Positions 7,434 to 54,890 of a stretch of 56,100 bases of DNA are shown piece after piece; position 1 is the first letter of the stretch; the number at the start of each line of letters is the position of its first letter. Origin of the DNA: Promethearchaeota archaeon (GTDB lineage Archaea; Asgardarchaeota; Lokiarchaeia; Sigyniarchaeales; SOKP01); NCBI GenBank assembly GCA_013375485.1, contig JABXKB010000001.1, positions 1 through 56,100 of the forward strand, in the 5' to 3' direction. Made by a program: the position numbers and the translations under genes. Under the pieces are notes generated by a model. That model did not search any database, was not told the origin of the DNA, and worked only from the letters and a program-made list of their open reading frames with translations.

Positions 7434-7444
7434 TCGAATCGGTT
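7434..7444 (-). promoter_or_regulatory. AACCGATTCGAT-class intergenic motif, copy 1
   Basis: minus-sense CTGAAACCGATTCGACAAAT; 11 nt after stop of 7456..8190, 34 nt before ATG 7400. Confidence 0.55.
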
Positions 7445-7455
7445 TCAGTTAAAAG

Positions 7456-8190
7456 CTATCTCCCTAGCATTTTTAAGACCTTTTCTTCATCTCGTTCGTA
7501 AATATGCATGCTATGAGCTGTATGAGTATAATGTCCAACTTCTAAATCAGGATAAGCGTCCTTAAGTTCATCTATCATTTTATACATTAAACTGATAAAC
7601 CATGGAAGGTCATAAGTTAGTCCCAAAGTAAGGTCATTACTTCGCATGACGATGCTTAGATTAAGTTTATTATCACGAATCAAGAAGTTACCGCCAAGCG
7701 TACAAACAAAATCTTTATTGCCCATATAGTGATGTTCTGGCAGACTAAACCGTAAAAGTGCTTGACGTGTATCTTTGTCTGCTCTTAAAGATTCAACACA
7801 CCATTCCCATGGCGTACGTGACACTGCTTCGTAAGCGTCATTGCCCAAACTCTTCTTTTGCCAAATCAAATGACCATAGGCCGAGTTTACTGTTCCATCG
7901 GAATTAGCTATCTTATTCCAAAACTTAGAAGCCTTAGCAAACTCTTTGACATCGTTAGTGCACGAATTATATAGTTCAACCTCTTTTTTAGTATATTTTT
8001 CTATTATCTTATTGCGCTCTGCATCGCGTGTTATGATTGGGTCGGGTTTAGGATTTGTTACTCGAAATGTATAATCAGTAATCTCGCGCACAGCTTGACC
8101 GCGTGGTGATGCTTTGTATTCATAATTAAAATAAACATCTTCTAACGAACCTAGATACGCTTCGTGTAAAGTATCATAAACCTTCATCAC
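7456..8190 (-). CDS. thymidylate-synthase-fold deoxypyrimidine hydroxymethylase (T4 gp42-like)
   Basis: DFVCTLGGNFLIRDNKLNLSIVMRSNDLTLGLTYDLPWF and HSMHIYERD match recalled gp42 blocks; catalytic Cys present; Asp at the ThyA Asn177-equivalent position. Confidence 0.7.
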   Translation of the reverse strand: MMKVYDTLHEAYLGSLEDVYFNYEYKASPRGQAVREITDYTFRVTNPKPDPIITRDAERNKIIEKYTKKEVELYNSCTNDVKEFAKASKFWNKIANSDGTVNSAYGHLIWQKKSLGNDAYEAVSRTPWEWCVESLRADKDTRQALLRFSLPEHHYMGNKDFVCTLGGNFLIRDNKLNLSIVMRSNDLTLGLTYDLPWFISLMYKMIDELKDAYPDLEVGHYTHTAHSMHIYERDEEKVLKMLGR

Positions 8191-8211
8191 TATCTCCTTT
8201 AATCACAATTA

Positions 8212-8886
8212 TTACATCCACCTTTTTACATGTTCTTCATATATTCTACGATTTGATCTAGTAGGACTGTTATAACGGGTCCACCAGTCAATTGGCTCGC
8301 GTTTTTTATAACCTCGTTGAAAATCGCGTAAAACTATGGCACCAGATTCTATGGAGTATTCTAAGTCTGTAGTTAATTGCTCAATATCAAAATCATATCT
8401 ATTGGCGGTTGTATAGTTAATTTGACTCATTCCAAAGTCAAAACAAATCTTGACTTTCTTAAACCTTTTAACTCCATTAACGCACCGATCAATCAACACA
8501 AAATCCCCATCTTGTAATGGATTTAAAAACATTCCATCTACTGTTTTAAATTTTTCAATACATTTACTTTTTTTCTCTGCAATTTCTTCATGACTTAATT
8601 CTGTAATTCCACTAGTACAATTCTTGGCACCCAAGTCATACTTAGATTCTTGCATTAAAATAGCTGTATATAGTCGCGCATCGATTTTATACCTTTTAGC
8701 AATTTTATAAATTATATTAGATATCTTAAACATTTTCTTTTTATTGACTTTATACGTTTTGCTTACCAATTTAAGTTTTTTAGCTGTTTTAAAATTGTTT
8801 AATATTTGACAGTATATCTTATTGCGTTTACAGTCTACGGCATATAAGGTGCTTGATAATATTAAAAATATTAGTACATGTCTCAT
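8212..8886 (-). CDS. secreted lytic transglycosylase (SLT domain)
   Basis: N-terminal signal peptide MRHVLIFLILSSTLYA; AILMQESKYD catalytic-Glu motif and FGMSQINY. Confidence 0.65.
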   Translation of the reverse strand: MRHVLIFLILSSTLYAVDCKRNKIYCQILNNFKTAKKLKLVSKTYKVNKKKMFKISNIIYKIAKRYKIDARLYTAILMQESKYDLGAKNCTSGITELSHEEIAEKKSKCIEKFKTVDGMFLNPLQDGDFVLIDRCVNGVKRFKKVKICFDFGMSQINYTTANRYDFDIEQLTTDLEYSIESGAIVLRDFQRGYKKREPIDWWTRYNSPTRSNRRIYEEHVKRWM

Positions 8887-9053
8887 CGCTTTTTCCTTCT
8901 ATCAATGTCTTCAATTATTTTTACTATCCACATGTTCACTAAACAAAATATCACCGCAACTACACTTAAAGTATTAACTTTAATATATAAAGCAAACATG
9001 TTTAATAGGCATAATATGAACCATCCCCAAAATCCAAATATAGGTTTTTTCAT
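8883..9053 (-). CDS. small membrane protein (56 aa)
   Basis: ATGA overlaps at both ends (9050-9053 and 8883-8886); SD GGGAG; two hydrophobic helices. Confidence 0.45.
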   Translation of the reverse strand: MKKPIFGFWGWFILCLLNMFALYIKVNTLSVVAVIFCLVNMWIVKIIEDIDRRKKR

Positions 9054-9250
9054 TTTAAGCTCCCTATAACTATAAGAAGAATTATGCTAATTATAATTAA
9101 AACTGCCAATGCAGCAGTAAAAATCAATGGACTTAATACCCAGAACCATGACCATGTAATTACGCCACCTAGCTTTAAGCCAATAAAAAGAATAGTTAAT
9201 AGTCCCCAAAAACCTATTCCACCGCCATTTACTTGAATCTTATCGCTCAT
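9050..9250 (-). CDS. small multi-TM membrane protein (holin-like candidate)
   Basis: 66 aa, almost entirely hydrophobic (GFWGLLTILFIGL..., LSPLIFTAALAVLIIISIILLIVI). Confidence 0.6.
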   Translation of the reverse strand: MSDKIQVNGGGIGFWGLLTILFIGLKLGGVITWSWFWVLSPLIFTAALAVLIIISIILLIVIGSLK

Positions 9251-9251
9251 A

Positions 9252-9401
9252 TTAAGTCTCCATCCAAATACAAAATAAACCTAACACTATCCATCCTATT
9301 CCTGTTGAACTATTGGTGATATACATACAAAAACTGCCGGCTACGCAAACAGCAATAGATGCTATACCTCTCGCTATACCTCTTGCTATATCTCTATCCA
9401 T
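9252..9401 (-). CDS. small membrane protein (49 aa)
   Basis: SD GGAGGAATA before ATG 9401 (TAATG overlap with upstream stop); hydrophobic core. Confidence 0.45.
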   Translation of the reverse strand: MDRDIARGIARGIASIAVCVAGSFCMYITNSSTGIGWIVLGLFCIWMET

Positions 9402-9787
9402 TATTCCTCCGCATCGCGCTCCCATAAAACTTCTTCTAAATTAGAAGTCCATTTACCATAACCATACCTTGTTTTTGTTAGTTTTTTCATTAACTGACCA
9501 GTTCTATTAAATAAATGTTGATAAACAAAAGTAGATTCTTTAACAGATTTTCCAGTTCTTTCACTAATGTAATTAGGGTTATATTTTTGCAAAGCAACTA
9601 ATACTTCAGTTTTTAAGTGCTGTCTAAAATCATTCATTGTCCAACCAGAATTACCTAATTGAACTTCACTATCATGTTTATTTAATGAAGCTTCGTTCCA
9701 ATTTTTTTGTACGTATTTCTGTAAATACATTTCTACCATAGCTTCATATTTTTTAATGTCTGCATTTGTTACTTTTCTCATTACCAT
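9401..9787 (-). CDS. sigma-70-family region-2-like protein (no region 4), candidate phage sigma factor
   Basis: YEAMVEMYLQKYV / TEVLVALQKYNPNY / STFVYQHLFNRTGQLMKKLTK resemble ECF sigma regions 2.1-2.4 (RpoE FNLLVVRYQHKV / VQEAFIKAYRALDSF / FYTWLYRIAVNTAKNYL). Confidence 0.4.
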   Translation of the reverse strand: MVMRKVTNADIKKYEAMVEMYLQKYVQKNWNEASLNKHDSEVQLGNSGWTMNDFRQHLKTEVLVALQKYNPNYISERTGKSVKESTFVYQHLFNRTGQLMKKLTKTRYGYGKWTSNLEEVLWERDAEE

Positions 9788-10302
9788 CTCCTCATTCTAC
9801 GACGACGGGCATTAGGTGTCTCGTATTTATCACTATATTTTGTATACAATACTTCCATAATTTTAAATGCGTTATTCATATGAAAATCATCGCCTTTATT
9901 TTCTTGTATGTATTTCCATAAATTATATATAACAACTTCTGTATCACTATTTTCTAAAAAGTTTGACTCATTTAACCACTTTCCAACTTTTGTTTTTAAT
10001 GGGTGTAATTTAGTACTATTTTCTTCGTATGTGTCAATGATATTTCTTCTCATTTCTGACCTAATTCTATAATATGCATTATCTGTATCAATAGTAAATT
10101 TAAGCATTGTAATGTCAAAGCGAAAATAAATATGATCTTCAATTATCTTACGTAGATGCTCATTGTCGACATTAACTGTGCACTTAAAATCGCCACGAGG
10201 AAAACGTAGGCTTGTTCTCCCGTGATAATCTTTGTATAGACATGGTGACCATATAGATTTTGGCGGTTCAACATCATTGATAATTTCTTTTATATAACTC
10301 AT
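9781..10302 (-). CDS. hypothetical protein
   Basis: 173-aa ORF overlapping both neighbours. Confidence 0.6.
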   Translation of the reverse strand: MSYIKEIINDVEPPKSIWSPCLYKDYHGRTSLRFPRGDFKCTVNVDNEHLRKIIEDHIYFRFDITMLKFTIDTDNAYYRIRSEMRRNIIDTYEENSTKLHPLKTKVGKWLNESNFLENSDTEVVIYNLWKYIQENKGDDFHMNNAFKIMEVLYTKYSDKYETPNARRRRMRRW

Positions 10303-11036
10303 ACCTCCTCCTCATCAATAGAATAAATGGGATTTTCTGTTTTATGGGTTAACATTTTAAATTTACAGAAATTAACTAATGCAGCACCATTACCAGTCTT
10401 TAAATACAGTATAATCCACTTTACAACTTTATTAGATAACTCTACGTCTCTAATATTCCATTCATTATTTTTCATTATTTCACCTAATGCACTATATAGT
10501 CCACGAAGTTTTTGTCTAGCAGATCTTTTCTTTCTAACTTCTGATAAGCCTATATGATCTATTATTTCATTAATACGCTCAACCGGTATATCTCTCCAAT
10601 TATATAACAATTGTCTGAAATTACCAAGTTCGTGACTACCAAGTAATTTTAAGGCGTCTTTTTCTTCAAAACGCTCTCGTATTTTAAATATCCTTATTTG
10701 TATTCCATCACTTGTTTTATTTTCTAAATCTAAAACTGCATTTTCATCAATATTAAATTCTATATCAAAGCTTTCAATCAACTGATTACGGTCTTCCCAT
10801 CGTATTGAATTATAATCATCGAGCTCTTTTGCCATTAAAAGCTTTATTATATTTTCTTTTGTTATGCTGGCAGGTCCATCCCAACCATTACTTACTAATT
10901 TTAGTATTGTCTTATTATCTAGCGTAAACTCATTTGGCAATTTTGCCAATTTTTCATCTAAAGGATTAAAAACTGGCTCACAAAGCTTTGATACAAAATC
11001 CATATCATCAAAAACTTTGTCGTCAAAAATACCCAT
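10299..11036 (-). CDS. hypothetical protein
   Basis: 245-aa ORF; SD AAGGAGA before ATG 11036; first gene after motif copy 2. Confidence 0.65.
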   Translation of the reverse strand: MGIFDDKVFDDMDFVSKLCEPVFNPLDEKLAKLPNEFTLDNKTILKLVSNGWDGPASITKENIIKLLMAKELDDYNSIRWEDRNQLIESFDIEFNIDENAVLDLENKTSDGIQIRIFKIRERFEEKDALKLLGSHELGNFRQLLYNWRDIPVERINEIIDHIGLSEVRKKRSARQKLRGLYSALGEIMKNNEWNIRDVELSNKVVKWIILYLKTGNGAALVNFCKFKMLTHKTENPIYSIDEEEV

Positions 11037-11078
11037 ATTGTCTCCTTAATAAATATCCAAAATAATTACATTAAAAAA

Positions 11079-11089
11079 TCGAATCGGTT
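11079..11089 (-). promoter_or_regulatory. AACCGATTCGAT-class intergenic motif, copy 2
   Basis: minus-sense TTAAACCGATTCGATTTTTT; overlaps stop codon of 11089..11685, 43 nt before ATG 11036. Confidence 0.55.
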
Positions 11090-11685
11090 TAATTATCAAA
11101 GCAAAATATAAGTCTTGCCTTTAATTTAGTTGGATTGTTCGGTTTAAGTAAAATTTGTATGGCATTGTGTTTATCTTGTTCATGTTTAATGTAGTCTAAA
11201 ATAGACACCCATTTCATAGGTCTTTCTTCTATAGGAATTGTAGACCGATCATAGAAACACGATGCTGCTTTACCTAACCACTTTAAATAATCTGTTGGCA
11301 TATCCCATTCATTAAGCGCAACTCCCCGTGTTGTAAGATGCTTACATTCACGCTCTTGCCAACAATATAAGCGCCTTAAAGATTCTTTAAACTCTTCCGG
11401 TGTTAACCATGAATGACTATGGAAATCCCAACCGCTATCAAAATGTATTTCATTAGCAAGATCAACAGAAACATCTTTTGGCACTCCACGACATTTCCAT
11501 TTAAAGGGGCTATCAGATCTTACGTTGGCCAATATACCAAATAAACCATAATGTCTTCCGGTTGCTGAAATTTCTCGCATTACTTTCCATGTGCCATCTT
11601 TTTGAATAGTGTGATGGCGATCAAGCCGCCACTTACTTTCACCTTCTTCGCGCCATTCTATGTACATATGTATATCACAACCCAT
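11089..11685 (-). CDS. hypothetical protein
   Basis: 198-aa ORF (MGCDIHMYIEW...), ATGA-type abutment with upstream gene. Confidence 0.65.
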   Translation of the reverse strand: MGCDIHMYIEWREEGESKWRLDRHHTIQKDGTWKVMREISATGRHYGLFGILANVRSDSPFKWKCRGVPKDVSVDLANEIHFDSGWDFHSHSWLTPEEFKESLRRLYCWQERECKHLTTRGVALNEWDMPTDYLKWLGKAASCFYDRSTIPIEERPMKWVSILDYIKHEQDKHNAIQILLKPNNPTKLKARLIFCFDN

Positions 11686-13222: not shown

Positions 13223-13382
13223 CGATTACTCCCAATGTTTTCAATAAGATTATTAATGCTTGTTTTTCTCTTAAAAATCGATTTTTTCTAAGTTCTCGCA
13301 TTGCCTTTTTATAATGATAATTTTCATACGCAATTAACAATAAAGGCGTAATTAATATACAAATTGCAAACCACTCAAACAT
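13209..13382 (-). CDS. small membrane protein (57 aa)
   Basis: SD GGAGA before ATG 13382; N-terminal TM FAICILITPLLLIAY; overlaps Smr gene start by 14 nt. Confidence 0.4.
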   Translation of the reverse strand: MFEWFAICILITPLLLIAYENYHYKKAMRELRKNRFLREKQALIILLKTLGVIDANN

Positions 13383-13391
13383 TTAATCTCC

Positions 13392-13419: not shown

Positions 13420-13463
13420 CAACATTAAAAATTATTTATGAGGATTTATTCTCTGATAATATA

Positions 13464-13474
13464 TCGAATCGGTT
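13464..13474 (-). promoter_or_regulatory. AACCGATTCGAT-class intergenic motif, copy 3
   Basis: minus-sense CTGAAACCGATTCGATATAT; 5 nt after stop of 13479..14516, 82 nt before ATG 13382. Confidence 0.55.
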
Positions 13475-13478
13475 TCAG

Positions 13479-14516
13479 TTAAGAGTTTAATATCGCTTTT
13501 ATTAATTCTAAACCATTGATTTCCAATGCTTTTTCTAGTTCATCGTTACCGTTATCAATAGCGTGCGCTCGAAGCAGTGTCAAGAAGTCATCGGGAGTTA
13601 TTGACTTATTCATTTTTTTATGCTTTAAGGCCCCTTGAAGTCCATACTTACGAAAAACGCCAGTATTTAAGTTATCGTGTATATCTAGATGACTTTCATT
13701 TTCAGCCAACTTTTCTTTATCTTTATAGGATACTATCTCCATGGGTTTACCTGACCAATGTTCAGATACTAATTTTCTAAGTGTTGCTGTAGCGGGGTGA
13801 TTTGGATTATTTAATATATCAGTGTGACCACGAATTGAATTCTCACCACTATGACCTACACCTATCCATCCTTCTTTATGGCCGGGCGTTGTATCATAGT
13901 CATCTGGATGATCATATTCATCATTCCAATCGCCAGGTTTTCCTTGTATTCCCATTAAAAAAGCATTATGATTTTCATTTGGTTTCATGGCGTGAAATTC
14001 ACCTTTTGGAGAAATCCAGCCGTGTAACGTGTTTAAATCACTGCGCATTTTACCTGTTCCACTTAAATCATACTGCTCTTTAATTAACTCTTCATCGAAC
14101 TCAATCATCATCTTTTTCATGCGTTTACGCCAATTTGCAAGTTTTTTAGAGTCAACTTTGTGACGACCACGATTTAACTTTTCTGGAACAGCTCTTGTAT
14201 TTGATGCCGCATAACCCCTTGAATTGTCTTTGCGATCTGGGGATAGCTTTTGCCCTGTCTTTTTCTCGGCACTTTGTATTTGCTTAACAATTGACTTACG
14301 GTTACCGCGCCCAGAACTTTTTTTAGAAGCAGTACCATTTTTACCATCTTGCCTGCGAAGTGCATCGTCCGCTTTTGTTTGTGCTCTCTGAGCGGAACCG
14401 GGTGTTTTCTTAGCGATTCTTAGTTTCTTAAGACAGCTTTTACACCTACCACCTTTAGTAGATACAGTATTTGAACACCTAACACATTTATGTTTTTCTA
14501 ATTTTTCCATACTCAT
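13479..14516 (-). CDS. hypothetical protein with N-terminal zinc ribbon and long basic region
   Basis: CVRCSN...GRCKSCLKK then Lys/Arg-rich ~120 aa, globular C-terminal half. Confidence 0.7.
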   Translation of the reverse strand: MSMEKLEKHKCVRCSNTVSTKGGRCKSCLKKLRIAKKTPGSAQRAQTKADDALRRQDGKNGTASKKSSGRGNRKSIVKQIQSAEKKTGQKLSPDRKDNSRGYAASNTRAVPEKLNRGRHKVDSKKLANWRKRMKKMMIEFDEELIKEQYDLSGTGKMRSDLNTLHGWISPKGEFHAMKPNENHNAFLMGIQGKPGDWNDEYDHPDDYDTTPGHKEGWIGVGHSGENSIRGHTDILNNPNHPATATLRKLVSEHWSGKPMEIVSYKDKEKLAENESHLDIHDNLNTGVFRKYGLQGALKHKKMNKSITPDDFLTLLRAHAIDNGNDELEKALEINGLELIKAILNS

Positions 14517-18240: not shown

Positions 18241-18266
18241 TATATCCTCCTCCTTGTAAATAACAA

Positions 18267-18277
18267 TAGAATCGGTT
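18267..18277 (-). promoter_or_regulatory. AACCGATTCGAT-class intergenic motif, copy 4 (TTCTAT variant)
   Basis: minus-sense CTTAAACCGATTCTATTGTT; immediately after terminator 18279..18322, 27 nt before ATG 18240. Confidence 0.5.
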
Positions 18278-18278
18278 T

Positions 18279-18322
18279 AAGAAAAAGGCACGGTTATCAA
18301 AAGGAGGTAAGATGACCGTGCC
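18279..18322 (-). terminator. rho-independent terminator after MoxR gene
   Basis: minus-sense GGCACGGT-(20-nt loop)-ACCGTGCC followed by TTTTTCTT. Confidence 0.65.
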
Positions 18323-19476: not shown

Positions 19477-19504
19477 TCATCCTCCTTTTTAATTTAAAAA
19501 ATAA

Positions 19505-19515
19505 TCGAATCGGTT
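19505..19515 (-). promoter_or_regulatory. AACCGATTCGAT-class intergenic motif, copy 5
   Basis: minus-sense TTAAAACCGATTCGATTATT; abuts stop of 19516..19848, 29 nt before ATG 19476. Confidence 0.55.
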
Positions 19516-19848
19516 TTAATCTACTAATAATATATAGTCTGATAATTCATCTTCTAGTCGTTCAACGTTATCTTCTAGTTGTTCAACGTTATCTTCTAGT
19601 TGTTCAATGTCACTTTCCAGTTTTTCTATGGTGTCAAAATATTCATCTGCTAATTCTTCAGTGGCTCTTAACTCACCGTTTATCTCAGTCAGTTTATCTT
19701 CTAACCCACCATTTGATTCTTCTAATAGTTCAAAATCATATTCAATGCTATTTAACTCCCATTTTGCTAATTCAGCCTTATTGTTTGCATCATCGAGTTC
19801 TTTTTGTTTTTTGCACAACAATTTAAGTAAAAAAGTTCTTTGTATCAT
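19516..19848 (-). CDS. acidic coiled-coil protein
   Basis: 110 aa; contains heptad tandem repeat IEQLEDNVEQLEDNVERLEDEL. Confidence 0.6.
   Translation of the reverse strand: MIQRTFLLKLLCKKQKELDDANNKAELAKWELNSIEYDFELLEESNGGLEDKLTEINGELRATEELADEYFDTIEKLESDIEQLEDNVEQLEDNVERLEDELSDYILLVD
19551..19613. repeat. 3 x 21-nt tandem repeat inside coiled-coil gene
   Basis: cttctagt(c/t)gttcaacgttat repeated three times (third copy diverged). Confidence 0.8.
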
Positions 19849-20451: not shown

Positions 20452-20480
20452 TATAAAACCTCCATAATTATAAAAAATAA

Positions 20481-20491
20481 TCGAATCGGTT
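20481..20491 (-). promoter_or_regulatory. AACCGATTCGAT-class intergenic motif, copy 6 (in divergent gap)
   Basis: minus-sense TTAGAACCGATTCGATTATT; no upstream minus gene; 30 nt before ATG 20451. Confidence 0.6.
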
Positions 20492-20525
20492 CTAAGTTTC
20501 TAAACTAAGATGATAATCAAGATAG

Positions 20526-27277: not shown

Positions 27278-27380
27278 GCTACCTCCTTTTTATATGTATT
27301 TAAACACTCTGCAACATATTCTAAATCAAAATCTATGTCTAATTCTCCTATTATATAATTATTTATATATTCGGTTGAGG

Positions 27381-27386
27381 TATAAT
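27381..27386 (+). promoter_or_regulatory. TATAAT -10-like box
   Basis: GAGGTATAATAC, 31 nt before ATG 27418 in divergent gap. Confidence 0.4.
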
Positions 27387-37559: not shown

Positions 37560-37580
37560 TACTCCTCCTTTATAAAAATA

Positions 37581-37591
37581 TCGAATCGGTT
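37581..37591 (-). promoter_or_regulatory. AACCGATTCGAT-class intergenic motif, copy 7
   Basis: minus-sense CTAAAACCGATTCGATATTT; 5 nt after stop of 37596..37859, 22 nt before ATG 37559. Confidence 0.55.
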
Positions 37592-37595
37592 TTAG

Positions 37596-37859
37596 TTAAG
37601 GGTTTAATATTTCAGCTATTTCTTCATCAACTAAGAATTCTTTTAATTTATTTACGAATTCGTCTGTATAATATGATTGACGATGATATTTTTCTGATGA
37701 TAAATTCCACACTAAAATTACTTTACATTCATCTAAAGTTAAATTATTAATAACAAAATTCACTTGATCTGTTATTTCCATGTGATGACAAGAACTAGCT
37801 AAATCATCAACTTTACGCATCGTTTTAACTAAATTTTCAATTACTTCAAATTTATCCAC
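37596..37859 (-). CDS. hypothetical protein
   Basis: 87-aa ORF. Confidence 0.55.
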   Translation of the reverse strand: MDKFEVIENLVKTMRKVDDLASSCHHMEITDQVNFVINNLTLDECKVILVWNLSSEKYHRQSYYTDEFVNKLKEFLVDEEIAEILNP

Positions 37860-42506: not shown

Positions 42507-42535
42507 TTAATGGTCCCCTTTTTATGTGTTTAATA

Positions 42536-42573
42536 ATCGAATCGGTTGGGGTGAATTGTGGCGTAGCGGTGTC
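42536..42573 (-). promoter_or_regulatory. 38-nt box GACACCGCTACGCCACAATTCACCCCAACCGATTCGAT (contains motif copy 8)
   Basis: identical 38-mer at 44209..44246; core motif at 42537-42547. Confidence 0.6.
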
Positions 42574-43560: not shown

Positions 43561-43586
43561 CTTACCTCCCATTATATATTTAACAG

Positions 43587-43597
43587 TCGAATTGGTT
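43587..43597 (-). promoter_or_regulatory. AACCGATTCGAT-class motif, copy 9 (CCAATTCGAC variant)
   Basis: minus-sense CTCAAACCAATTCGACTGTT; 27 nt before ATG 43560. Confidence 0.5.
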
Positions 43598-43609
43598 TGA
43601 GTTATAAGC

Positions 43610-44174: not shown

Positions 44175-44208
44175 ATTAACCCCCTTATTGCGTTGTTGTT
44201 ATATATAC

Positions 44209-44246
44209 ATCGAATCGGTTGGGGTGAATTGTGGCGTAGCGGTGTC
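44209..44246 (-). promoter_or_regulatory. second copy of the 38-nt box (contains motif copy 10)
   Basis: identical to 42536..42573; core at 44210-44220, 36 nt before ATG 44174. Confidence 0.6.
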
Positions 44247-48229: not shown

Positions 48230-48259
48230 AACCTACCTCCTTTGTTTTATATAAACTAA

Positions 48260-48270
48260 TAGAATCGGTC
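48260..48270 (-). promoter_or_regulatory. AACCGATTCGAT-class motif, copy 11 (GACCGATTCTAT variant)
   Basis: minus-sense CCCTGACCGATTCTATTAGT; overlaps the stop codon of 48269..48535 by 2 nt, 31 nt before ATG 48229. Confidence 0.5.
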
Positions 48271-48535
48271 AGGGTTTGGAGCGCTTAGGATAAATGGGGC
48301 CAAATATAGCTTTTTCAAATTGCTCGTCTTTCCATTGTTTATATACTTTTTGTACGTTATCAGTAAAAATTCCCCAACCTATTCCCTCACCTCGAAAACC
48401 CATTAATTTTCCATTTTCTTCTAACATTGGGAGTGGAAATAGTAATCTATCTTTTAAAGTATATTGCATATTCTCAAAATCAAAAGACCAGCCATATTTT
48501 GGGTCAGTCCAATATATTTTTTCTAGTTTAATCAT
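48269..48535 (-). CDS. hypothetical protein
   Basis: 88 aa; tail VYKQWKDEQFEKAIFG. Confidence 0.55.
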   Translation of the reverse strand: MIKLEKIYWTDPKYGWSFDFENMQYTLKDRLLFPLPMLEENGKLMGFRGEGIGWGIFTDNVQKVYKQWKDEQFEKAIFGPIYPKRSKP

Positions 48536-49040: not shown

Positions 49041-49041
49041 A

Positions 49042-49344: not shown

Positions 49345-49679
49345 AGCACAGTCCTCTCAAATAATTCATGTTGTATATCTTTTATCATATTAGGGTCAAG
49401 TTCCATTTCTTTGCGGCGACATTTAATTATAACTATGTTTCCCACAAACCTCCATGCATATCGATTACGGTGTTTATCTAATGAGATCCATTGTTGACAA
49501 GTAGACCACGTCCATTCGTTTTTGTTAGTTTTATTAGTTGCTTCGTTGAATAATCTAAGTAGAAATTCAAGTTCAAATGTAGTAAAAGACTTTAAATCTT
49601 TTAAGCTATAACGATATGTGTTGGCTATATATTGCTTTGCTATTTTTTTTAACAATCTTATTTTCTTAATTCTGTCCAT
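49341..49679 (-). CDS. hypothetical protein (FELEFL family, paralogue of 55291..55548)
   Basis: TTFELEFLLRLFNEATNKTNKNEWT.STCQQW vs TKFELEFLTKMYENGGDSNKTNFT.KACQHY. Confidence 0.55.
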   Translation of the reverse strand: MDRIKKIRLLKKIAKQYIANTYRYSLKDLKSFTTFELEFLLRLFNEATNKTNKNEWTWSTCQQWISLDKHRNRYAWRFVGNIVIIKCRRKEMELDPNMIKDIQHELFERTVL

Positions 49680-50082
49680 CTAATACATTCCTCTCAAATG
49701 CTTCATTGCGATAAGCTTCAAACTCTTTATAAGTTAAACACTTACCTTCAATATACCAACTTTTACTACCATCAGCAAACTCAACCGCTGGTCCATCTAA
49801 GCGATGACGTTTACCCTTAACATACCAACATTTACAACTGTCAGCATACTCAATTGCTGGTCCATCTAAGCGATGTAACTTACCATTAACATACCATCGT
49901 TTACTGCCACTAGAATACTCAACAGCTGGCCCATCTAAGCGATGTAACTTATCTTCAATATACCAACATTTATGACCATTGGCATACTCAATTGCTGGCC
50001 CCTTAAGGCGATGTAGCTTCTTATTGCAATTATAATAATCTAAAATACTACCGTCTGAGTAATAAAATTTATTTTTCTTCAC
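49666..50082 (-). CDS. MORN-like repeat protein, 4 repeats, array-closing tail
   Basis: 4 cores; tail LTYKEFEAYRNEAFERNVLDGQN. Confidence 0.8.
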   Translation of the reverse strand: MKKNKFYYSDGSILDYYNCNKKLHRLKGPAIEYANGHKCWYIEDKLHRLDGPAVEYSSGSKRWYVNGKLHRLDGPAIEYADSCKCWYVKGKRHRLDGPAVEFADGSKSWYIEGKCLTYKEFEAYRNEAFERNVLDGQN

Positions 50083-50503
50083 TTAGTATCTCCTCTATAG
50101 CTAAACTAGCTAAGTAGTCTAACCGCTTAGGGTGATTCTCAAATTCTTCTTCAGTTAAATGTTTACCATTAATATACCATCGTTTACTGCCACTAACATA
50201 CTCACAAGCTGGCCCATCTAAGCGATGTAACTTATCGTCAATAAACCAATATTTACTGCCATTAGCAAACTCAACCGCTGGCCCATCAAGGCGATGCAAC
50301 TTACCTTCAACATACCATTCCCTATGACCATTAGCATACTCAATTGCTGGCCCATCTAAGCGATGACGTTTACCCTCAACATACCACCATTTATAACCAT
50401 TGGCATACTCAACAGCTGGCCCATCAAGGCGATGTAGTTTCTTCGTATCATCATAATAATTTAAAATACTACCGTCTAAGTAATAAAATTTATTTTTCTT
50501 CAC
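50069..50503 (-). CDS. MORN-like repeat protein, 4 repeats
   Basis: 4 cores; tail LASLAIEEILSEEK. Confidence 0.8.
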   Translation of the reverse strand: MKKNKFYYLDGSILNYYDDTKKLHRLDGPAVEYANGYKWWYVEGKRHRLDGPAIEYANGHREWYVEGKLHRLDGPAVEFANGSKYWFIDDKLHRLDGPACEYVSGSKRWYINGKHLTEEEFENHPKRLDYLASLAIEEILSEEK

Positions 50504-50852
50504 TTAGTATCTCCTCTATAGCTAAACTAGCTAAGTAATCTTGCCTTTTAGGATGCACTTCAAATTCTTCTTCAGTTAAATGTTTACCATTAATACACCA
50601 ATATTTATCACCATCGGCGCACTCAATTGCCGGCCCATCTAAGCGATGTAACTTATCTTCAACATACCACTCTTTATCACCATCAGCCCACTCAACAGCT
50701 GGCCCATCAAGGCGATGACGTTTACCCTCAACATACCAATATTTATCACCATCAGCAAACTCAACCGCTGGCCCATCTAAACGATGTAGTTCCTTATTGC
50801 GATTATAATAATCTAAAATACTACCGTCTGAGTAATAATATTTATTTCCCAT
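50490..50852 (-). CDS. MORN-like repeat protein, 3 repeats
   Basis: 3 cores; tail LASLAIEEILSEEK. Confidence 0.8.
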   Translation of the reverse strand: MGNKYYYSDGSILDYYNRNKELHRLDGPAVEFADGDKYWYVEGKRHRLDGPAVEWADGDKEWYVEDKLHRLDGPAIECADGDKYWCINGKHLTEEEFEVHPKRQDYLASLAIEEILSEEK

Positions 50853-51339
50853 CTAATAATTCCTCTATGGCTAAACTAGCCAAGTAATCTTTTCTTTTGG
50901 GGTGTGTTTCAAATTCTTTTTCAGTTAAATATTTACCATTAACATACCGCGCTTTATAACCATTAGCGTACTCAACTGCTGGCCCATCAAGGCGATGACG
51001 TTTACCCTCAACATACCAACATTTATCGCCATTAGCGCACTCAATCGCTGGCCCATCAAGACGATGACGTTTACCCTCAACATACCATTCCCTATGACCA
51101 TTGGCATACTCAACAGCTGGCCCATCTAAGCGATGACGTTTATCTTCAATAAACCAATATTTATTACCATTAGCGCACTCAATCGCTGGCCCATCAAGAC
51201 GATGACGTTTACCCTCAACATACCACGCTTTATAACCATTAGCGTACTCAATTGCTGGCCCCTTAAGGCGATGTAGCTTCTTATTGCAATCATAATAATC
51301 TAAAATACTACCATCTAAGTAATAAATTTTATCTTCCAT
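50842..51339 (-). CDS. MORN-like repeat protein, 5 repeats
   Basis: 5 cores; tail LASLAIEELLDGK. Confidence 0.8.
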   Translation of the reverse strand: MEDKIYYLDGSILDYYDCNKKLHRLKGPAIEYANGYKAWYVEGKRHRLDGPAIECANGNKYWFIEDKRHRLDGPAVEYANGHREWYVEGKRHRLDGPAIECANGDKCWYVEGKRHRLDGPAVEYANGYKARYVNGKYLTEKEFETHPKRKDYLASLAIEELLDGK

Positions 51340-51628
51340 CTAATACATTCCTCTCAAACAACTCAGTCTTAAAGCAATTTATGCCACCTATCTTAAAGCG
51401 CCTACCTATTGGGTTATTATCTTCTTTAATCATCAGCCAATCTATTTCAAGCGGATATCTTATGGTATAAACACCTTCGCGGTAACTATCTATCCTTCCA
51501 TCTACCACATTACAGATAGCCGCTAATATACGAGTAGGAATCTGCTTCAAAATACGCTCAGATATATAGTTACACGAGATTTCGTCTATATCATTTATAT
51601 TCGTTAATAAATCCCACGTTTTCTTCAT
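51329..51628 (-). CDS. hypothetical protein interrupting array C
   Basis: no MORN repeats; tail FKTELFERNVLDGR. Confidence 0.55.
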   Translation of the reverse strand: MKKTWDLLTNINDIDEISCNYISERILKQIPTRILAAICNVVDGRIDSYREGVYTIRYPLEIDWLMIKEDNNPIGRRFKIGGINCFKTELFERNVLDGR

Positions 51629-52029
51629 AGCACATTCCTTTCAAACAATTCATTACGATAAGCTTCAAACCTTTCGTAAGTTAAACGCTTACCATTAATA
51701 TACCAGCGCTTATTACCATTGGCCCATTCAATTGCTGGCCCATCTAAACGATGTAACTTACCCTCAACACACCATTCTTTATCGCCACTAGCATGCTCAA
51801 CTGCTGGCCCATCTAAGCGATGTAACTTACCTTTAACATACCATCGTTTACTGCCATTGGCATACTCAACAGCTGGCCCGTCTAAGCGATGTAGTTTATC
51901 TTCAATCCACCACTCTTTATCACCATCAACGTACTCAGCTGCTGGCCCATCTAAACGATGTAACTTCTTATTGCGATTATAATAATCTAAAACACTACCG
52001 TCTGAGTAATAATATTTATCTTCCTTCAT
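51625..52029 (-). CDS. MORN-like repeat protein, 4 repeats, array-closing tail
   Basis: 4 cores; tail LTYERFEAYRNELFERNVL. Confidence 0.8.
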   Translation of the reverse strand: MKEDKYYYSDGSVLDYYNRNKKLHRLDGPAAEYVDGDKEWWIEDKLHRLDGPAVEYANGSKRWYVKGKLHRLDGPAVEHASGDKEWCVEGKLHRLDGPAIEWANGNKRWYINGKRLTYERFEAYRNELFERNVL

Positions 52030-52519
52030 CTAATAATTCCTCTATGGCTAAACTAGCTAAGTAGTCTTGCCTTTTAGGATGCGCTTCAAATTGTTTTTCA
52101 GTTAGGTATTTACCTTCAACATACCATTCCCTATGACCATTAGCATACTCAATTGCTGGCCCGTCTAAGCGATGCAACTTACCTTCAACATACCATTCCC
52201 TATCACCATTAGCATACTCAATTGCCGGCCCATCTAAGCGATGACGTTTATCTTCAGTCCGCCACTCTTTACAACCATTAGCCCACTCAATTGCTGGCCC
52301 ATCAAGACGATGTAACTTACCTTCAACATACCATTCCCTATGACCATTAGCATACTCAATTGCTGGCCCGTCTAAGCGATGACGTTTATCTTCAACATAC
52401 CACGCTTTACAACTGTCAGCATACTCAACTGCTGGCCCGTCTAAGCGATGTAGCTTCTTATTACAATCACAATAATCTAAAACACTACCATCTAAGTAAT
52501 AATAATATTTATTTTCCAT
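52016..52519 (-). CDS. MORN-like repeat protein, 5 repeats
   Basis: 5 cores; tail LASLAIEELLDEGR. Confidence 0.8.
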   Translation of the reverse strand: MENKYYYYLDGSVLDYCDCNKKLHRLDGPAVEYADSCKAWYVEDKRHRLDGPAIEYANGHREWYVEGKLHRLDGPAIEWANGCKEWRTEDKRHRLDGPAIEYANGDREWYVEGKLHRLDGPAIEYANGHREWYVEGKYLTEKQFEAHPKRQDYLASLAIEELLDEGR

Positions 52520-52802
52520 CTAATAATTCCTCTATAGCTAAACTAGCTAAATAATCATAACGCTTAGGATGTGTTTCAAATTCTTCTTCAGTTAAATGTT
52601 TACCATTAACATACCACGCCTTATAACCATTAGCGTACTCAACTGCTGGCCCATCTAAGCGATGACGTTTATCTTCAACATGCCACTCTTTATTACCATC
52701 AGCATACTCAACAGCTGGCCCATCTAAGCGATGTAACTTCTTGTTCCAATCACAATAATTTAAAATACTGCCGTCTAAGTAATAAAATTTATTTTTCTTC
52801 AC
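52509..52802 (-). CDS. MORN-like repeat protein, 2 repeats
   Basis: 2 cores; tail LASLAIEELLDGK. Confidence 0.8.
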   Translation of the reverse strand: MKKNKFYYLDGSILNYCDWNKKLHRLDGPAVEYADGNKEWHVEDKRHRLDGPAVEYANGYKAWYVNGKHLTEEEFETHPKRYDYLASLAIEELLDGK

Positions 52803-53226
52803 TTAGTATCTCCTCTATCGCCAAACTAGCTAAGTAGTCTTTTCTTTTGGGGTGGGCTTCAAATTCTTCTTCAGTTAAACGCTTACCATTAATAATCCAC
52901 CACCTTTTACCACCATCAGCAAACTCAACCGCTGGCCCATCAAGGCGATGACGTTTATCCTCAACATACCATTCCCTATGACCATTGGCAAACTCAACAG
53001 CTGGCCCGTCTAAGCGATGTAACTTACCATTAACATACCACTCTTTACAACCATTAGCCCACTCAATTGCTGGCCCATCAAGACGATGTAACTTACCTTC
53101 AACATGCCAATATTTACTGCCATTGGCATACTCAGCTGCTGGCCCATCTAAGCGATGTAGTTCCTTATCCCAATCATAATAATCTAAAATACTACCGTCT
53201 AAGTAATAATATTTATTTTCTTTCAT
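52789..53226 (-). CDS. MORN-like repeat protein, 4 repeats
   Basis: 4 cores; tail LASLAIEEILSEEK. Confidence 0.8.
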   Translation of the reverse strand: MKENKYYYLDGSILDYYDWDKELHRLDGPAAEYANGSKYWHVEGKLHRLDGPAIEWANGCKEWYVNGKLHRLDGPAVEFANGHREWYVEDKRHRLDGPAVEFADGGKRWWIINGKRLTEEEFEAHPKRKDYLASLAIEEILSEEK

Positions 53227-53509
53227 TTAATATCTCCTCTATAGCTAAACTAGCTAAATAATCATAACGCTTAGGATGTGTTTCAAATTCTTCTTCAGTT
53301 AGGTATTTACCATTAACCCACCATCGTTTACTACCACTAGAAAACTCAACCGCTGGTCCATCTAAGCGATGACGTTTACCCTTAACATACCACCATTTAC
53401 TGCCACTAGCATACTCAATTGCTGGCCCATCAAGGCGATGTAGTTTCTTCGTATCATCATAATAATTTAAAATACTACCGTCTAAGTAATAAAATTTATC
53501 TCTTTTCAC
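53213..53509 (-). CDS. MORN-like repeat protein, 2 repeats
   Basis: 2 cores; tail LASLAIEEILNERK. Confidence 0.8.
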   Translation of the reverse strand: MKRDKFYYLDGSILNYYDDTKKLHRLDGPAIEYASGSKWWYVKGKRHRLDGPAVEFSSGSKRWWVNGKYLTEEEFETHPKRYDYLASLAIEEILNERK

Positions 53510-53999
53510 TTAGTATCTCCTCTATAGCTAAACTAGCTAAGTAATCTTGCCTTTTAGGGTGCGCTTCAAATTGTTTTTCAGTTAGGTATTTACCTTCAAC
53601 ATACCATTCCCTATGACCATTAGCATACTCAATTGCTGGCCCGTCTAAGCGATGACGTTTATCTTCAACATACCACGCTTTACCACCATCAGCAAACTCA
53701 ACCGCTGGCCCATCAAGGCGATGCAACTTACCTTCAACATACCATTCCCTATGACCATTAGCATACTCAATTGCCGGCCCATCTAAGCGATGACATTTAC
53801 CCTTAACATACCATGCGTTATTACCATTAGCATACTCAATTGCTGGCCCATCTAAGCGATGAATCTTATCTTCAATATACCAATATTTACTGCCATTGGC
53901 ATACTCAACAGCTGGCCCATCAAGGCGATGTAACTTCTTGTTCCAATCTTTATAATCTAAAATACTACCATCTAAGTAATAAAATTTATTTTTCTTCAC
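53496..53999 (-). CDS. MORN-like repeat protein, 5 repeats
   Basis: 5 cores; tail LASLAIEEILSEKR. Confidence 0.8.
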   Translation of the reverse strand: MKKNKFYYLDGSILDYKDWNKKLHRLDGPAVEYANGSKYWYIEDKIHRLDGPAIEYANGNNAWYVKGKCHRLDGPAIEYANGHREWYVEGKLHRLDGPAVEFADGGKAWYVEDKRHRLDGPAIEYANGHREWYVEGKYLTEKQFEAHPKRQDYLASLAIEEILSEKR

Positions 54000-54210
54000 T
54001 TAGTATCTCCTCTATAGCTAAACTAGCTAAGTAATCATAACGCTTAGGATGCGCTTCAAATTCTTCTTCAGTTAAATGTTTACCATTAATATACCATCGT
54101 TTACTGCCACTAACATACTCAATTGCTGGCCCATCTAAGCGATGTAGTTTCTTATCCCAATCATAATAACCTAAAACACTACCATCTAAGTAACAATATT
54201 TATCTCCCAC
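53986..54210 (-). CDS. MORN-like repeat protein, 1 repeat (minimal member, first gene of array C)
   Basis: N-cap + single HRLDGPA core + tail LASLAIEEILSEEK in 74 aa. Confidence 0.75.
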   Translation of the reverse strand: MGDKYCYLDGSVLGYYDWDKKLHRLDGPAIEYVSGSKRWYINGKHLTEEEFEAHPKRYDYLASLAIEEILSEEK

Positions 54211-54529
54211 CTAATACATTCCTCTCAAATAACTCAGCCTTAATTTTTTCTTCACAACACCTTTTTCTTAAAAAACCCCTTTTAACAAAACTATAATCTA
54301 AATATAAACCATACTCTACATCTGTACCACGAACCCTAACCCTTAAATGTGCTGTCTTTCCATTCTTATGTATATAGTGCCAGAATCTATGTTCATTATG
54401 AGTTTGATTCATAACCTCTAACAATCCCTCTAAGGTACTAGAAGGAAGGGTAGACGGGTCAAACTGGTCATACTGACGGCTATATTGGCACAGTACTTCA
54501 ACTACACTTTCTAACACTAATGAATCCAC
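54200..54529 (-). CDS. hypothetical protein (LESVV family)
   Basis: GTG start after GGAGGCAAGTA; tail KIKAELFERNVLGGR. Confidence 0.6.
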   Translation of the reverse strand: MDSLVLESVVEVLCQYSRQYDQFDPSTLPSSTLEGLLEVMNQTHNEHRFWHYIHKNGKTAHLRVRVRGTDVEYGLYLDYSFVKRGFLRKRCCEEKIKAELFERNVLGGR

Positions 54530-54842
54530 TACTTGCCTCCACCTAACACATTCCTCTCAAATAACTCAGCCTCAATATTTTCCTTACAATCACTTTCTCC
54601 TAAAAAACCACTACCACTAAAAATATCGTATAATATATACCTGTATCATTATCAACCTCAATCTCGAACCATATTTCTTTAGTAGCACTTTTCTTAAACC
54701 ACCCCCAATTACAGCCTTTATTTATAACTTCTAACAATCCCTCTAGAGTATTAGAAGGAAGGGTGGATAGGTCGCACTGACTCCAATCATAGCTGTACCT
54801 GTGCACCACCTTAACTACACTTTCTAATACTGATATTTCCAC
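54529..54842 (-). pseudogene. frameshifted paralogue of 54200..54529 (or programmed frameshift)
   Basis: N-part (GTG 54842, ISVLESVVKVV...STLPSNTLEGLLEV) stops at 54600; homologous C-part SGSGFLGESDCKENIEAELFERNVLGGGK is in another frame ending TAG 54529-54531; switch must lie in GTATATATTATAC near 54630-54642. Confidence 0.55.
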
Positions 54843-54879
54843 TACTCGCCTCCAACTGATACTATACCATGATAATATT

Positions 54880-54890
54880 TCGTATCGGTT
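54880..54890 (-). promoter_or_regulatory. AACCGATTCGAT-class motif, copy 12 (CCGATACGA variant)
   Basis: minus-sense CTATCAACCGATACGAAATA; 38 nt before GTG 54842. Confidence 0.45.

Follow-up and report, generated by a model that had tools for sequence, protein, structure and literature searches.

A strand-locked intergenic motif as a probable phage-specific promoter, with a candidate sigma-like reader, in an uncultured family of large phages

Results and Discussion

The 56,100-bp contig JABXKB010000001.1, analysed here over its entire length (the window), is assigned to an uncultured phage family with genomes of 150-178 kb and carries a short intergenic motif, with the core ACCGATTCGA, that recurs on one strand only. 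This motif is, we conclude with good confidence, a phage-specific promoter. Four features favour that reading: the strand lock, which holds across the family; an AT-rich spacer that ends at a fixed distance in a pyrimidine-purine step; ATG codons that fall on that same purine; and an unlikeness to sigma70 elements. An earlier sequence-only reading had offered a phage-specific promoter beside an RNA-level operator or processing site, and these data come down on the side of the first. The fuller explanation, in which a phage-specific promoter class has the motif as its recognition block and the product of open reading frame (ORF) 9401-9787 as its candidate reader, also appears likely.

Phage-specific promoter classes are the main handle on the temporal programme of a phage genome, and they are almost never known for uncultured phages. 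The motif family described here offers a sequence-only marker of transcription units and predicted starts in environmental phages of 150-178 kb, a widespread family without cultured representatives.

Twelve copies on one strand

The core (plus-strand text TCGAATCGGT) is present in eight exact copies, all of them on the minus strand, where dinucleotide-preserving shuffles predict 0.02 by chance. With up to one mismatch allowed, 12 sites are found against 1.39 expected, and once more all 12 lie on the minus strand (Table 1; copies 4, 9, 11 and 12 carry the mismatch). At two mismatches the matches drop to chance level, with 25 found and 26 expected. The 12 positions originally listed are thus all recovered. 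Every copy sits in a gap separating minus-strand ORFs, upstream of a minus-strand gene, which agrees with the initial description of the copies as intergenic or touching a stop codon and in the sense of the minus-strand genes; copy 11 overlaps the upstream TGA by one base, and copies 2 and 5 abut a stop codon. A nearby start codon had been noted for 11 of the 12 copies, and this too holds, with 21-42 intervening nt between core and start codon; the remaining copy, copy 3, is separated from its start codon by 81 nt. Likewise, copy 6 does lie in the divergent gap 20452-20549, as reported. The claim that three copies follow hairpin terminators survives in part: the hairpins upstream of copies 4 and 8 are terminator-like and have U-runs, and that upstream of copy 9 is a hairpin without a U-run.

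An independent measure of these sites came from a weight matrix trained on 52 sites from relatives only, with the window excluded. The 12 copies score 15.5-27.9 bits on this matrix, and the plus-strand maximum anywhere in the window is 7.6 bits. Beyond the 12 copies and one further site at 27366-27375 (15.6 bits), nothing rises above 10.5 bits. This possible degenerate thirteenth copy has the T, the pyrimidine and the A at the expected downstream positions, and its score is level with that of the weakest copy; we hold it at low confidence, since it has lost the C that is invariant family-wide at core position 8. A degenerate plus-strand copy that had been proposed at 27727-27743 scores below -5 bits on the same matrix. 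The argument that had been built on it, that orientation tracks the direction of transcription, is invalid because the plus-strand copy is not real.

Conservation extends beyond the core. Past the motif, the 5th nt is a T, the 9th a pyrimidine and the 10th a purine in all 12 copies, and the intervening 8-nt spacer is 6% GC. When positions are counted from the first A of ACCGATTCGA as 0, the purine is at position 19, and is an A in 11 copies and a G in one.

Several copies have further sequence features nearby. A terminator-like hairpin with a U-run (13421-13399) lies 42 nt past copy 3, ahead of the ribosome-binding site of the next gene, and suggests either a short RNA of ~65 nt or an attenuator; the closest long relative, a 176-kb contig (locus L003 in our numbering of related loci), has a motif plus hairpin at the corresponding place (~13390-13460). 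The repeat GACACYGCTACGCCAC is found in three exact minus-strand copies (42558-42573, 44231-44246 and 55248-55263; 0 expected). Two of these precede motif copies 8 and 10 by 11 nt, within a 37-nt repeat GACACCGCTACGCCACAATTCACCCCAACCGATTCGAT, and the third opens the GC-rich gap 54843-55290, at the other end of which copy 12 is found. This gap of 448 nt contains no ORF, has ~47-50% GC against 34% for the genome, and may correspond to either a non-coding RNA or structured DNA; Rfam at E<=1 gave no match over 54500-55700, the interval that holds the gap and copy 12.

A motif family with lineage-specific spellings

To place the window's copies in a family context, we took 83 related loci, 844 kb in all, and oriented them by the ATPase gene. 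These loci contain 25 exact and 68 one-mismatch matches in gene sense, as against 0 exact and 12 one-mismatch matches in antisense. About 12 of the sense matches are coincidental and fall in the ATPase gene, where the conserved peptide NRFEE is encoded as AAC-CGN-TTC-GAA and produces in-gene near-matches (e.g. L025:9203, L026:1681, L039:10500) that are to be excluded from the counts. Unsupervised 7-mer counts in the upstream regions of the 39 loci without the window's spelling gave TTTCCGA (21:0), TCCGAAA (19:1), CCGAAAC (16:0) and GAAACTA (22:2) as the top sense-only words (sense:antisense).

These words belong to lineage-specific variants that occupy the register of ACCGATTCGA, namely ACAGATTCGA, ACCGAATCGA, TCCGAAACTA and TCTGAAACTA, with C.GA..C.A in common. 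A CCGA-anchored alignment brings all variants into one 10-nt register, w-C-(C/T/A)-G-A-w-w-C-(G/T)-A. Spelling is homogeneous within each lineage: ACCGATTCGAT in L017, L021, L049 and L050; ACCGATYCGAT in L003; ACCGAWTCGA in L026 and L081; ACAGATTCGAW in L025, L029, L037 and L039; TCTGAAACTA or TCCGAAACTA in L022, L024, L009, L011 and others; TTTCCGAAACAA in L036 and L047; and TTTCCGAWTCWA in L065 and L057. Moreover, the variants swap at orthologous positions, upstream of the ATPase gene and of the operon that contains the sigma-like ORF 9401-9787. The site upstream of the ATPase ortholog is of the window's type in 12 loci and of a shorter CCGA/CTGA type in many others. Across the related loci, neither convergent gaps nor the upstream regions of opposite-strand genes contained the motif. 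In L003, the copy upstream of the ATPase lies in a divergent gap. A strict terminator is present within 70 nt upstream of 5 of 121 sites in relatives, so a terminator followed by a promoter is not the general layout.

The way in which spelling follows lineage bears on whether a host factor reads the motif. A host sigma factor of the sigma28/FliA/SigD type, with a -10 element GCCGATAA/T, might recognise the CCGAT/TCGAT core, given that TTCGATaa, and in some lineages CCGATAA or CCGATAT, resembles the sigma28 -10 element in a compatible register. However, no TAAA-type -35 element stands at the required spacing (positions -16 to -10 hold <=0.16 bit), the spelling varies by phage lineage (compare ACAGATTCGA and TCTGAAACTA) as expected under co-evolution with a phage factor, and the family spans 32-60% GC and many habitats, hence many hosts. 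We regard recognition by a host sigma of this type as very improbable.

A hairpin of the form GACC-loop-GGTC, with a variable loop, was observed ~20-45 nt upstream of the ATPase start in L011, L019, L024, L033, L043 and L077. It lies just before the ATPase Shine-Dalgarno (SD) sequence in relatives with TCYGAAACTA-type sites and may be a leader structure.

Searches with fixed strings added little. The 19-mer TTAACTGAAACCGATTCGA had no match in viral contigs and the 14-mer AAACCGATTCGATA had single, evidently chance matches there, and neither scan was informative; in the searchable literature CCGATTCGA and CTGAAACTA matched nothing but unrelated sequences of primers or genes.

A predicted transcription start 10 nt downstream

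Two alignments were compared, one of 63 non-redundant window-type sites and one of 32 TCYGAAACTA-type sites. The former comprises a weak flank, AACTnAA, at positions -7 to -1, the core at 0-9, a W at 10, and an AT-rich stretch from 10 to 17 in which T14 is found in 40 of 63 sites. Position 18 is a pyrimidine in 55 of the 63 window-type sites, where it is never a G, and in 26 of the 32 TCYGAAACTA-type sites; position 19 is a purine in 56 and 28 of them, respectively. The two types have no flanking sequence in common.

In relatives, ATGs opening ORFs of 45 codons or more are sharply concentrated 9 nt past the core (six window-type and two TCYGAAACTA-type sites). A distance of 8 nt is never seen, 10 and 11 nt are seen once each, and the range from 12 to 19 nt is almost empty; SD-led starts appear from 20 nt. 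The 9-nt gene in L026 (MGIFDDK...) is the ortholog of the window gene 10299-11036, which is SD-led and begins 42 nt behind copy 2. Another gene, MKxTxEQLIEEFL..., has its ATG 9, 10 and 11 nt past the core in three different relatives. Together, the pyrimidine-purine step and the ATGs placed exactly on its purine point to a transcription start at position 19, 10 nt downstream of the motif. From such a start the mRNAs of the 9-nt genes would be leaderless, and the empty distance zone would correspond to leaders too short for a ribosome-binding site. The shortest leader predicted in the window, that of copy 7, is 12 nt long and begins right at the SD sequence.

The promoter thus outlined would have a single conserved block. 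No conserved -35 element was found in the 63-site alignment, in which positions -16 to -10 hold <=0.16 bit; upstream of position -8 the information is <=0.18 bit across both site sets, and there is no conserved partner 16-18 bp upstream of the motif in the alignment. So little distance separates the motif from the ribosome-binding site that it can be neither a -35 box nor an upstream activator site, and the shortest sites leave no room for a -10 hexamer and discriminator between the two. A MotA-box-like activator site was rejected for want of room for a -10 hexamer downstream, and an extracytoplasmic-function (ECF) reading, with AAC at -35 and CGT at -10, was rejected, since under it the conserved core would fall within the spacer and transcription would begin beyond the leaderless ATGs.

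The mechanism we propose, by analogy with T4 gp55, is that a phage-encoded specificity factor redirects the host RNA polymerase core to motif sites, with the product of ORF 9401-9787 as the leading candidate for that factor. Recognition would centre on the 10-bp core (0-9), the AACTnAA flank (-7 to -1) being optional, so that the block would span about -26 to -10 relative to the start. The AT-rich 8-nt spacer at 10-17, with T14 in the window's clade, would lead to the pyrimidine at 18 and the initiating purine at 19. Transcripts would then carry a leader of at least 12 nt before an SD-led start codon or, in some relatives, no leader at all, starting on the A of the ATG.

A non-promoter DNA site could also account for part of this pattern, either as an operator over weak AT-rich promoters or as a site of replication, recombination, packaging or nuclease action. 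The short tandem CGAT-T-CGAT could suit a dimeric DNA-binding protein, and the site is strictly intergenic. Such a site would leave unexplained the strict co-orientation with the downstream gene and the fixed distance to the pyrimidine-purine step and leaderless ATGs; an operator would in addition find no space for an independent -10 hexamer and discriminator at the shortest sites, and the motif is absent from convergent gaps. We give this explanation very little weight.

Coexistence with sigma70-like promoters

The earlier observation that the motif is unlike sigma70 elements is borne out, in that the core resembles neither hexamer and sites of the sigma70 type (TGTATAAT-type) occupy other gaps or, at 20452-20549, the opposite strand (Table 1). 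Most of these are extended -10 elements of the form TGTATAATAA, and the gap 26906-26998 has a canonical TTGACA-17-TACATT. They precede the ligase gene, one ClpP gene, a number of small genes and every plus-strand gene, and GTATAAT is also enriched upstream of genes in relatives. The presence of sigma70-like promoters in other gaps indicates that two promoter classes coexist, as in T4 and SPO1. A generic sigma70 consensus scan of the window stayed at chance level, and a generic terminator consensus scan missed the large-loop hairpins.

A candidate reader with a sigma-region-2-like fold

ORF 9401-9787 had been singled out from the letters alone, and a similarity to sigma region 2 at the fold level, together with transitive weak sequence evidence, supports that choice. 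Its protein is among the most conserved of the family, with 50-80% identity in 13 related loci and 50-87% family-wide. A large protein collection contains 367 homologs, all unnamed and without Pfam domains; none was found in cultured phages. An AlphaFold model built with 32 homologs (pLDDT 78, pTM 0.69) has Foldseek matches that are dominated by sigma region-2 domains, at E 0.03-6 and none with E below 0.001. Leading matches in the PDB include the N-terminal domain of SigE (probability 0.98, TM 0.72 on target), a sigma fragment in complex with single-stranded -10 DNA, mycobacterial SigA and SigB, Thermus SigA, WhiG and T4 gp55. Among viral models, the matches are phage sigmas, with gp55-type late sigmas from Campylobacter and Delftia phages among them.

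When 1.8 billion representative proteins were searched with a profile, 54 clusters were returned. In three distant homologs, the homologous stretch gives a sub-threshold Pfam Sigma70_r2 match (15-17 bits, cut-off 24; E = 0.005-0.015), and in five others the homologous domain is N-terminal and followed by a C-terminal helix-turn-helix, as in two-domain sigmas. By eye, (D)DLMQFG..VMIALRKYNP...STFV..HL.NR.GQ parallels the region 2 sequence DLIQEGNIGLMKAVDKF...FSTYATWWIRQ. Judged by its modelled fold, the protein is a probable region-2-only sigma.

The protein has a near-invariant helix, HLFNR(T/I/V)GQLMKKLTK, which reads HLTFR in the TCCGAAAC(A/G)A clade and HLSKR in the ACAGATTCGA lineage; that is, HL(F/T/S)(N/F/K)R has two variable residues and is otherwise invariant. 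The promoter spellings ACCGATTCGA, ACAGATTCGA and TCCGAAACAA pair with sigma-like proteins of the FN, SK and TF helix variants, respectively. This co-variation of helix and motif spelling is suggestive and is confounded by phylogeny.

The sigma-like gene is the last of a predicted operon of three behind copy 2, in which it follows genes for proteins of 245 and 173 aa. The order motif, 245 aa, ~170 aa and 126-aa sigma-like protein is conserved in the window and eight relatives, and the overlap of the last two genes suggests translational coupling. The 245-aa protein (MGIFDDK...) is conserved family-wide and the ~170-aa partner poorly so; neither has a family match, and the 173-aa protein has no detectable homologs in the large protein collection.

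If the motif is a promoter, we put the chance that this protein reads it at about even; without that condition, the assignment is a possible one that falls somewhat short of even. A broader proposal, that a hitherto undescribed family of ~126-aa region-2-only sigmas redirects the host polymerase to a co-evolving 10-18-bp promoter from which some transcripts are leaderless, is offered tentatively, as a conjecture with the balance tilted against it. Were the 126-aa protein the reader, it would be a second, independent region-2-only sigma besides T4 gp55, with a promoter between the gp55 and sigma28 solutions and a compact, potentially orthogonal factor-promoter pair; the motif variants and the two variable helix residues would then form a natural series on how specificity changes.

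Counter-evidence and alternative readers

Several observations weigh against a promoter read by this protein. The predicted start is deduced from sequence statistics, and if it is at position 19 the core lies ~4 nt further upstream than a canonical -10 element. In the window and relatives alike, most copies directly follow a stop codon without a terminator. This arrangement implies internal promoters of long co-directional gene arrays, and upstream transcripts probably read through the motif, which leaves room for an RNA-level role. For the reader, the scores behind the sigma-like assignment are weak: Pfam and PHROGs searches with the ORF 9401-9787 protein gave no sigma match, Pfam Sigma70_r2 did not match it or 31 close homologs even at E<=10, its profile found spurious WD40 repeats only among PDB sequences, and hhalign was negative against region 2 of E. 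coli RpoD and against RpoE. In every lineage examined, the sigma-like operon is itself headed by the motif (the window, L003, L015, L026, L032, L036, L047, L048 and L065), and the leftward block from 20.4 to 2.9 kb shows no convincing sigma70-type entry promoter; together these facts pose a bootstrapping problem if the protein is the sole reader. Autoregulation from a basal level, or arrival with the virion, are possible ways round it. The protein could instead be the sigma of a later class, as in the case of SPO1 gp33/34. Finally, the window covers 56 kb of a genome of ~150-178 kb, and a phage RNA polymerase or some other factor may be encoded elsewhere.

The read-through just described is one ground for an RNA element, in which a sequence-specific endoribonuclease or RNA-binding protein would recognise ACCGAUUCGA on polycistronic RNA and cut ~9 nt downstream to leave new 5' ends, some of them leaderless, or in which the motif would be a translational operator. 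A strand lock is equally expected of such an element, and a cut at a fixed distance could also yield the ATG register. However, some copies stand where little or no upstream transcript is to be expected and a promoter is demanded, in divergent gaps (copy 6 and the L003 ATPase) and after the two terminator-like hairpins. The distance to the ribosome-binding site ranges from 0 to >60 nt and orthologs switch between leaderless and SD-led starts, which is unsuited to an operator; the motif has no complementarity to the Shine-Dalgarno sequence. An AT-rich spacer followed by a pyrimidine-purine step is typical of initiation. RNAalifold predicted 0 pairs over the 12 sites and Rfam contributed no family, which argues against a structured RNA. 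The operator or processing site that had been put forward beside the promoter is accordingly disfavoured, and we rate it as quite improbable.

A different alternative retains the promoter and changes its reader. Another phage factor or a phage RNA polymerase, encoded off the contig or carried in the virion, would read the motif as a middle class, and the sigma-like protein, itself expressed from the motif, would direct a later one with promoters among structural genes beyond the window. The motif ahead of the sigma-like operon in nine lineages, the lack of an evident sigma70-like entry promoter for the block that holds it, and the fact that the window is about a third of the genome all fit this arrangement, as does the contiguous block of ~18 bp, the size of single-subunit polymerase promoters. 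Against this, no RNA polymerase or sigma family was detected among 120 window proteins, no second sigma-like paralog was found in the window, and neither a polymerase nor a second sigma-like gene was seen in the related loci. A single block without a -35 element is the expected target of a region-2-only sigma, autoregulated alternative sigmas are common, and the sigma70-type promoters in the window imply use of the host polymerase. We consider a different reader unlikely.

The window and its phage family

The window has a GC content of 34% and holds ~120 of its 130 predicted genes on the minus strand, with strong GGAGG ribosome-binding sites. No tRNA genes were found, and no Rfam family reached the gathering threshold over the window. 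Recognised genes encode an ATP-dependent DNA ligase, a polynucleotide kinase, a thymidylate-synthase-like enzyme, a dNMP kinase, a dATP/dGTP diphosphohydrolase (PF18909, MazZ-like), a MoxR-type ATPase paired with a DUF2201 metallopeptidase-like protein, three ClpP-like proteases within one 15-kb stretch, one of them on the opposite strand, and 18 tandem DUF6745 paralogs. The occurrence together of the thymidylate-synthase-like enzyme, the dNMP kinase and the diphosphohydrolase suggests a modified-base or nucleotide-pool-editing pathway. The DUF6745 paralogs are arranged in two long arrays, with motif copy 8 at the head of one and copy 12 at the head of the other; the best Pfam match has E = 9e-11, and a literature search for DUF6745 returned no papers.

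Table 1. Motif copies, candidate reader and other features of the window
Feature	Position	Strand	Core	Predicted start	Score (bits)	Context
Copy 1	7424..7450	-	ACCGATTCGA, 7434-7443	7424	25.0	Flank TAACTGAA; gene 6963-7400
Copy 2	11069..11095	-	ACCGATTCGA, 11079-11088	11069	25.7	Conserved operon 10299-11036 / 9781-10302 / 9401-9787 (sigma-like)
Copy 3	13454..13480	-	ACCGATTCGA, 13464-13473	13454	27.9	Next gene 13209-13382
Copy 4	18257..18283	-	ACCGATTCTA, 18267-18276	18257	18.1	After terminator-like hairpin; gene 16702-18240 (512-aa metallopeptidase-like)
Copy 5	19495..19521	-	ACCGATTCGA, 19505-19514	19495	26.1	MoxR-type ATPase gene 18337-19476
Copy 6	20471..20497	-	ACCGATTCGA, 20481-20490	20471	23.5	Divergent gap, upstream of 20080-20451
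Copy 7	37571..37597	-	ACCGATTCGA, 37581-37590	37571	27.8	26-codon ORF with strong ribosome-binding site, then 36965-37465
Copy 8	42527..42553	-	ACCGATTCGA, 42537-42546	42527	24.5	Heads DUF6745 paralog run; terminator-like hairpin and repeat GACACCGCTACGCCAC upstream
Copy 9	43577..43603	-	ACCAATTCGA, 43587-43596	43577	15.5	
Copy 10	44200..44226	-	ACCGATTCGA, 44210-44219	44200	23.8	Preceded by the 27-nt repeat of copy 8
Copy 11	48250..48276	-	ACCGATTCTA, 48260-48269	48250	17.9	One base in common with upstream stop
Copy 12	54870..54896	-	ACCGATACGA, 54880-54889	54870	18.8	Heads long DUF6745 array; downstream end of GC-rich 448-nt gap 54843-55290
Possible degenerate 13th copy	27347..27382	-	ACCGAATATA, 27366-27375		15.6	Divergent gap 27278-27417, upstream of 26999-27277
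Sigma-like gene (candidate reader)	9401..9787	-				126-128 aa; region-2-like fold, no region 4
Operon partners	9781..11036	-				245 aa + 173 aa; with sigma-like gene behind copy 2, predicted co-transcription
Thymidylate-synthase-like gene	7456-8190					
ClpP-like protease gene	20550-21365	+				
ClpP-like protease gene	33490-34323	-				
ClpP-like protease gene	34649-35380	-				
DUF6745 paralogs	~39428-54529	-				n=18, tandem, overlapping
Sigma70-like promoter, gap	4724-4807					
Sigma70-like promoter, gap	5731-5759					
Sigma70-like promoter, gap	22484-22548					
Sigma70-like promoter, gap	26906-26998					
Sigma70-like promoter, gap	27712-27891					
Sigma70-like promoter, gap	29498-29570					
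Sigma70-like promoter, gap	33416-33489					
Sigma70-like promoter, gap	35381-35475					
Sigma70-like promoter, gap	36535-36738					
Sigma70-like promoter, gap	44690-44777					
Sigma70-like promoter, gap	20452-20549	+				

Database comparisons set the window apart from cultured phages. A near-identity DNA search with 8 kb of the window found no match among 50,697 phage records, which leaves the contig without a cultured relative. An exact-protein look-up of the ligase returned no record; the enzyme is closest to those of SPO1-like phages, at 35% identity, and the best match of the ATPase in any cultured phage is at 27%. Metagenomic relatives are closer, such as an IMG/VR contig of 176 kb with 78% identity in the ATPase and 63% in the ligase. 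Around the ATPase ortholog we collected 80 loci from freshwater, sediment, soil and peat, the longest of their contigs reaching 150-177 kb. Long contigs of the family include SDBT01000020.1, WBZN01000057.1 and Ga0208243_1000040. Overall, the phage family is widespread and wholly uncultured, and its GC range of 32-60% and many habitats indicate many hosts. One member, L084 (LNEN01000305.1, 146,658 bp), was binned into a Cytophagales metagenome-assembled genome; this bin is weak evidence of host, as GGAGG ribosome-binding sites fit a Bacteroidota host poorly. L003 has a cluster of 22 tRNAs (2483-6666) between its ligase and ATPase regions, where the window has none. A 211-aa protein used to extend beyond the left end of the window found no relative.

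Comparison with known phage and bacterial promoters

The motif fails the defining features of several known promoter types. Sigma70/sigma-A promoters have TTGACA and TATAAT 16-18 bp apart, or TGnTATAAT; the motif resembles neither hexamer and no element stands 17 bp upstream. SPO1 has middle (gp28) and late (gp33/34) classes, with genes 33 and 34 behind a phage-specific promoter, an arrangement echoed by the sigma-like gene behind copy 2, and its promoters are bipartite, with AGGAGA or CGTTAGA at -35 and TTTNTTT or GATATT at -10. Both SPO1 and the window's phage are large, have genes rich in Shine-Dalgarno sequences, and combine host-type early promoters with a phage-specific class. However, the motif shows no bipartite conservation and no -35 element, and the sequences are unrelated.

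Promoters of T7-type single-subunit polymerases share with the motif a contiguous conserved block of ~18-20 bp that is oriented, intergenic, repeated and followed by an AT-rich melting segment. Their conservation runs from -17 to +6, through the start, whereas here it ends at about -9 and only the pyrimidine-purine step marks the start; none of the 120 proteins of the 56-kb window matches a polymerase family of this type. The late promoters of phiKZ and AR9-type phages, read by a non-virion RNA polymerase, consist of a short element near the start, with no -35 element and a sigma-like specificity subunit. The motif is likewise a short element just upstream of the start without a -35 element. 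In those phages, though, the motifs are AT-rich and of 4-6 nt, the polymerase has split beta/beta' subunits and the host polymerase is ignored; in the window, sigma70-like promoters are present and no polymerase subunits are seen.

Resemblance to sigma28/FliA/SigD promoters (-35 TAAA..., -10 GCCGATAA/T) is closer. In the sigma28 -10 consensus GCCGATAA, which spans -15 to -8, the A at -11 is flipped out (PMC12784957). The motif may offer a comparable CGAT(A/T)(A/T) core, at about -13 to -8 and with an A near -11: TTCGATaa (positions 5-12), made up of the 3' half of the core and the bases that follow it, matches the consensus at 6 of 8 positions, and the invariant A9 would be at -10 or -11 for a start at 19 or 20, although many lineages have CTA rather than CGA. 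WhiG, a member of the sigma28 family, is among the top fold matches of ORF 9401-9787. In contrast to sigma28 promoters, there is no TAAA(G) -35 element ~14-15 bp upstream of the -10 (the <=0.16 bit at -16 to -10 noted above), a second upstream half (ACCGA / TCYGA) is equally conserved, and the candidate factor is without regions 3 and 4. The resemblance is a lead and not membership.

T4 late promoters have a single -10-like element that is read by gp55, a diverged sigma with a region-2 homology domain only (PMC7892883). Like them (TATAAATA, read by gp55 with gp33 and the gp45 clamp), the motif is a single block near the start with no -35 element, and both stand beside sigma70-type early promoters and use, in our case as a candidate, a small region-2-like sigma on the host core (PMC7892883); gp55-type sigmas are also among the fold matches of ORF 9401-9787 (E 0.03-6). 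The differences lie in sequence, position and content. The motif is unrelated to TATAAATA, has a GC-containing 10-bp core plus flank, and would extend from about -19 to -10, ~4 nt further upstream; the genes behind it are non-structural (the ATPase, nucleotide-metabolism neighbours and small-gene arrays); no homologs of gp33 or gp45 were recognised in the window gene census; and ORF 9401-9787, which has no detectable sequence similarity to gp55, is itself behind the motif. Overall, the motif lacks the defining features of sigma70, SPO1, ECF, sigma28 (for its -35 element) and T7-type promoters, and, while it is not a member of the T4 class by sequence or exact position, its mode is like that of a late or middle promoter of the gp55 kind.

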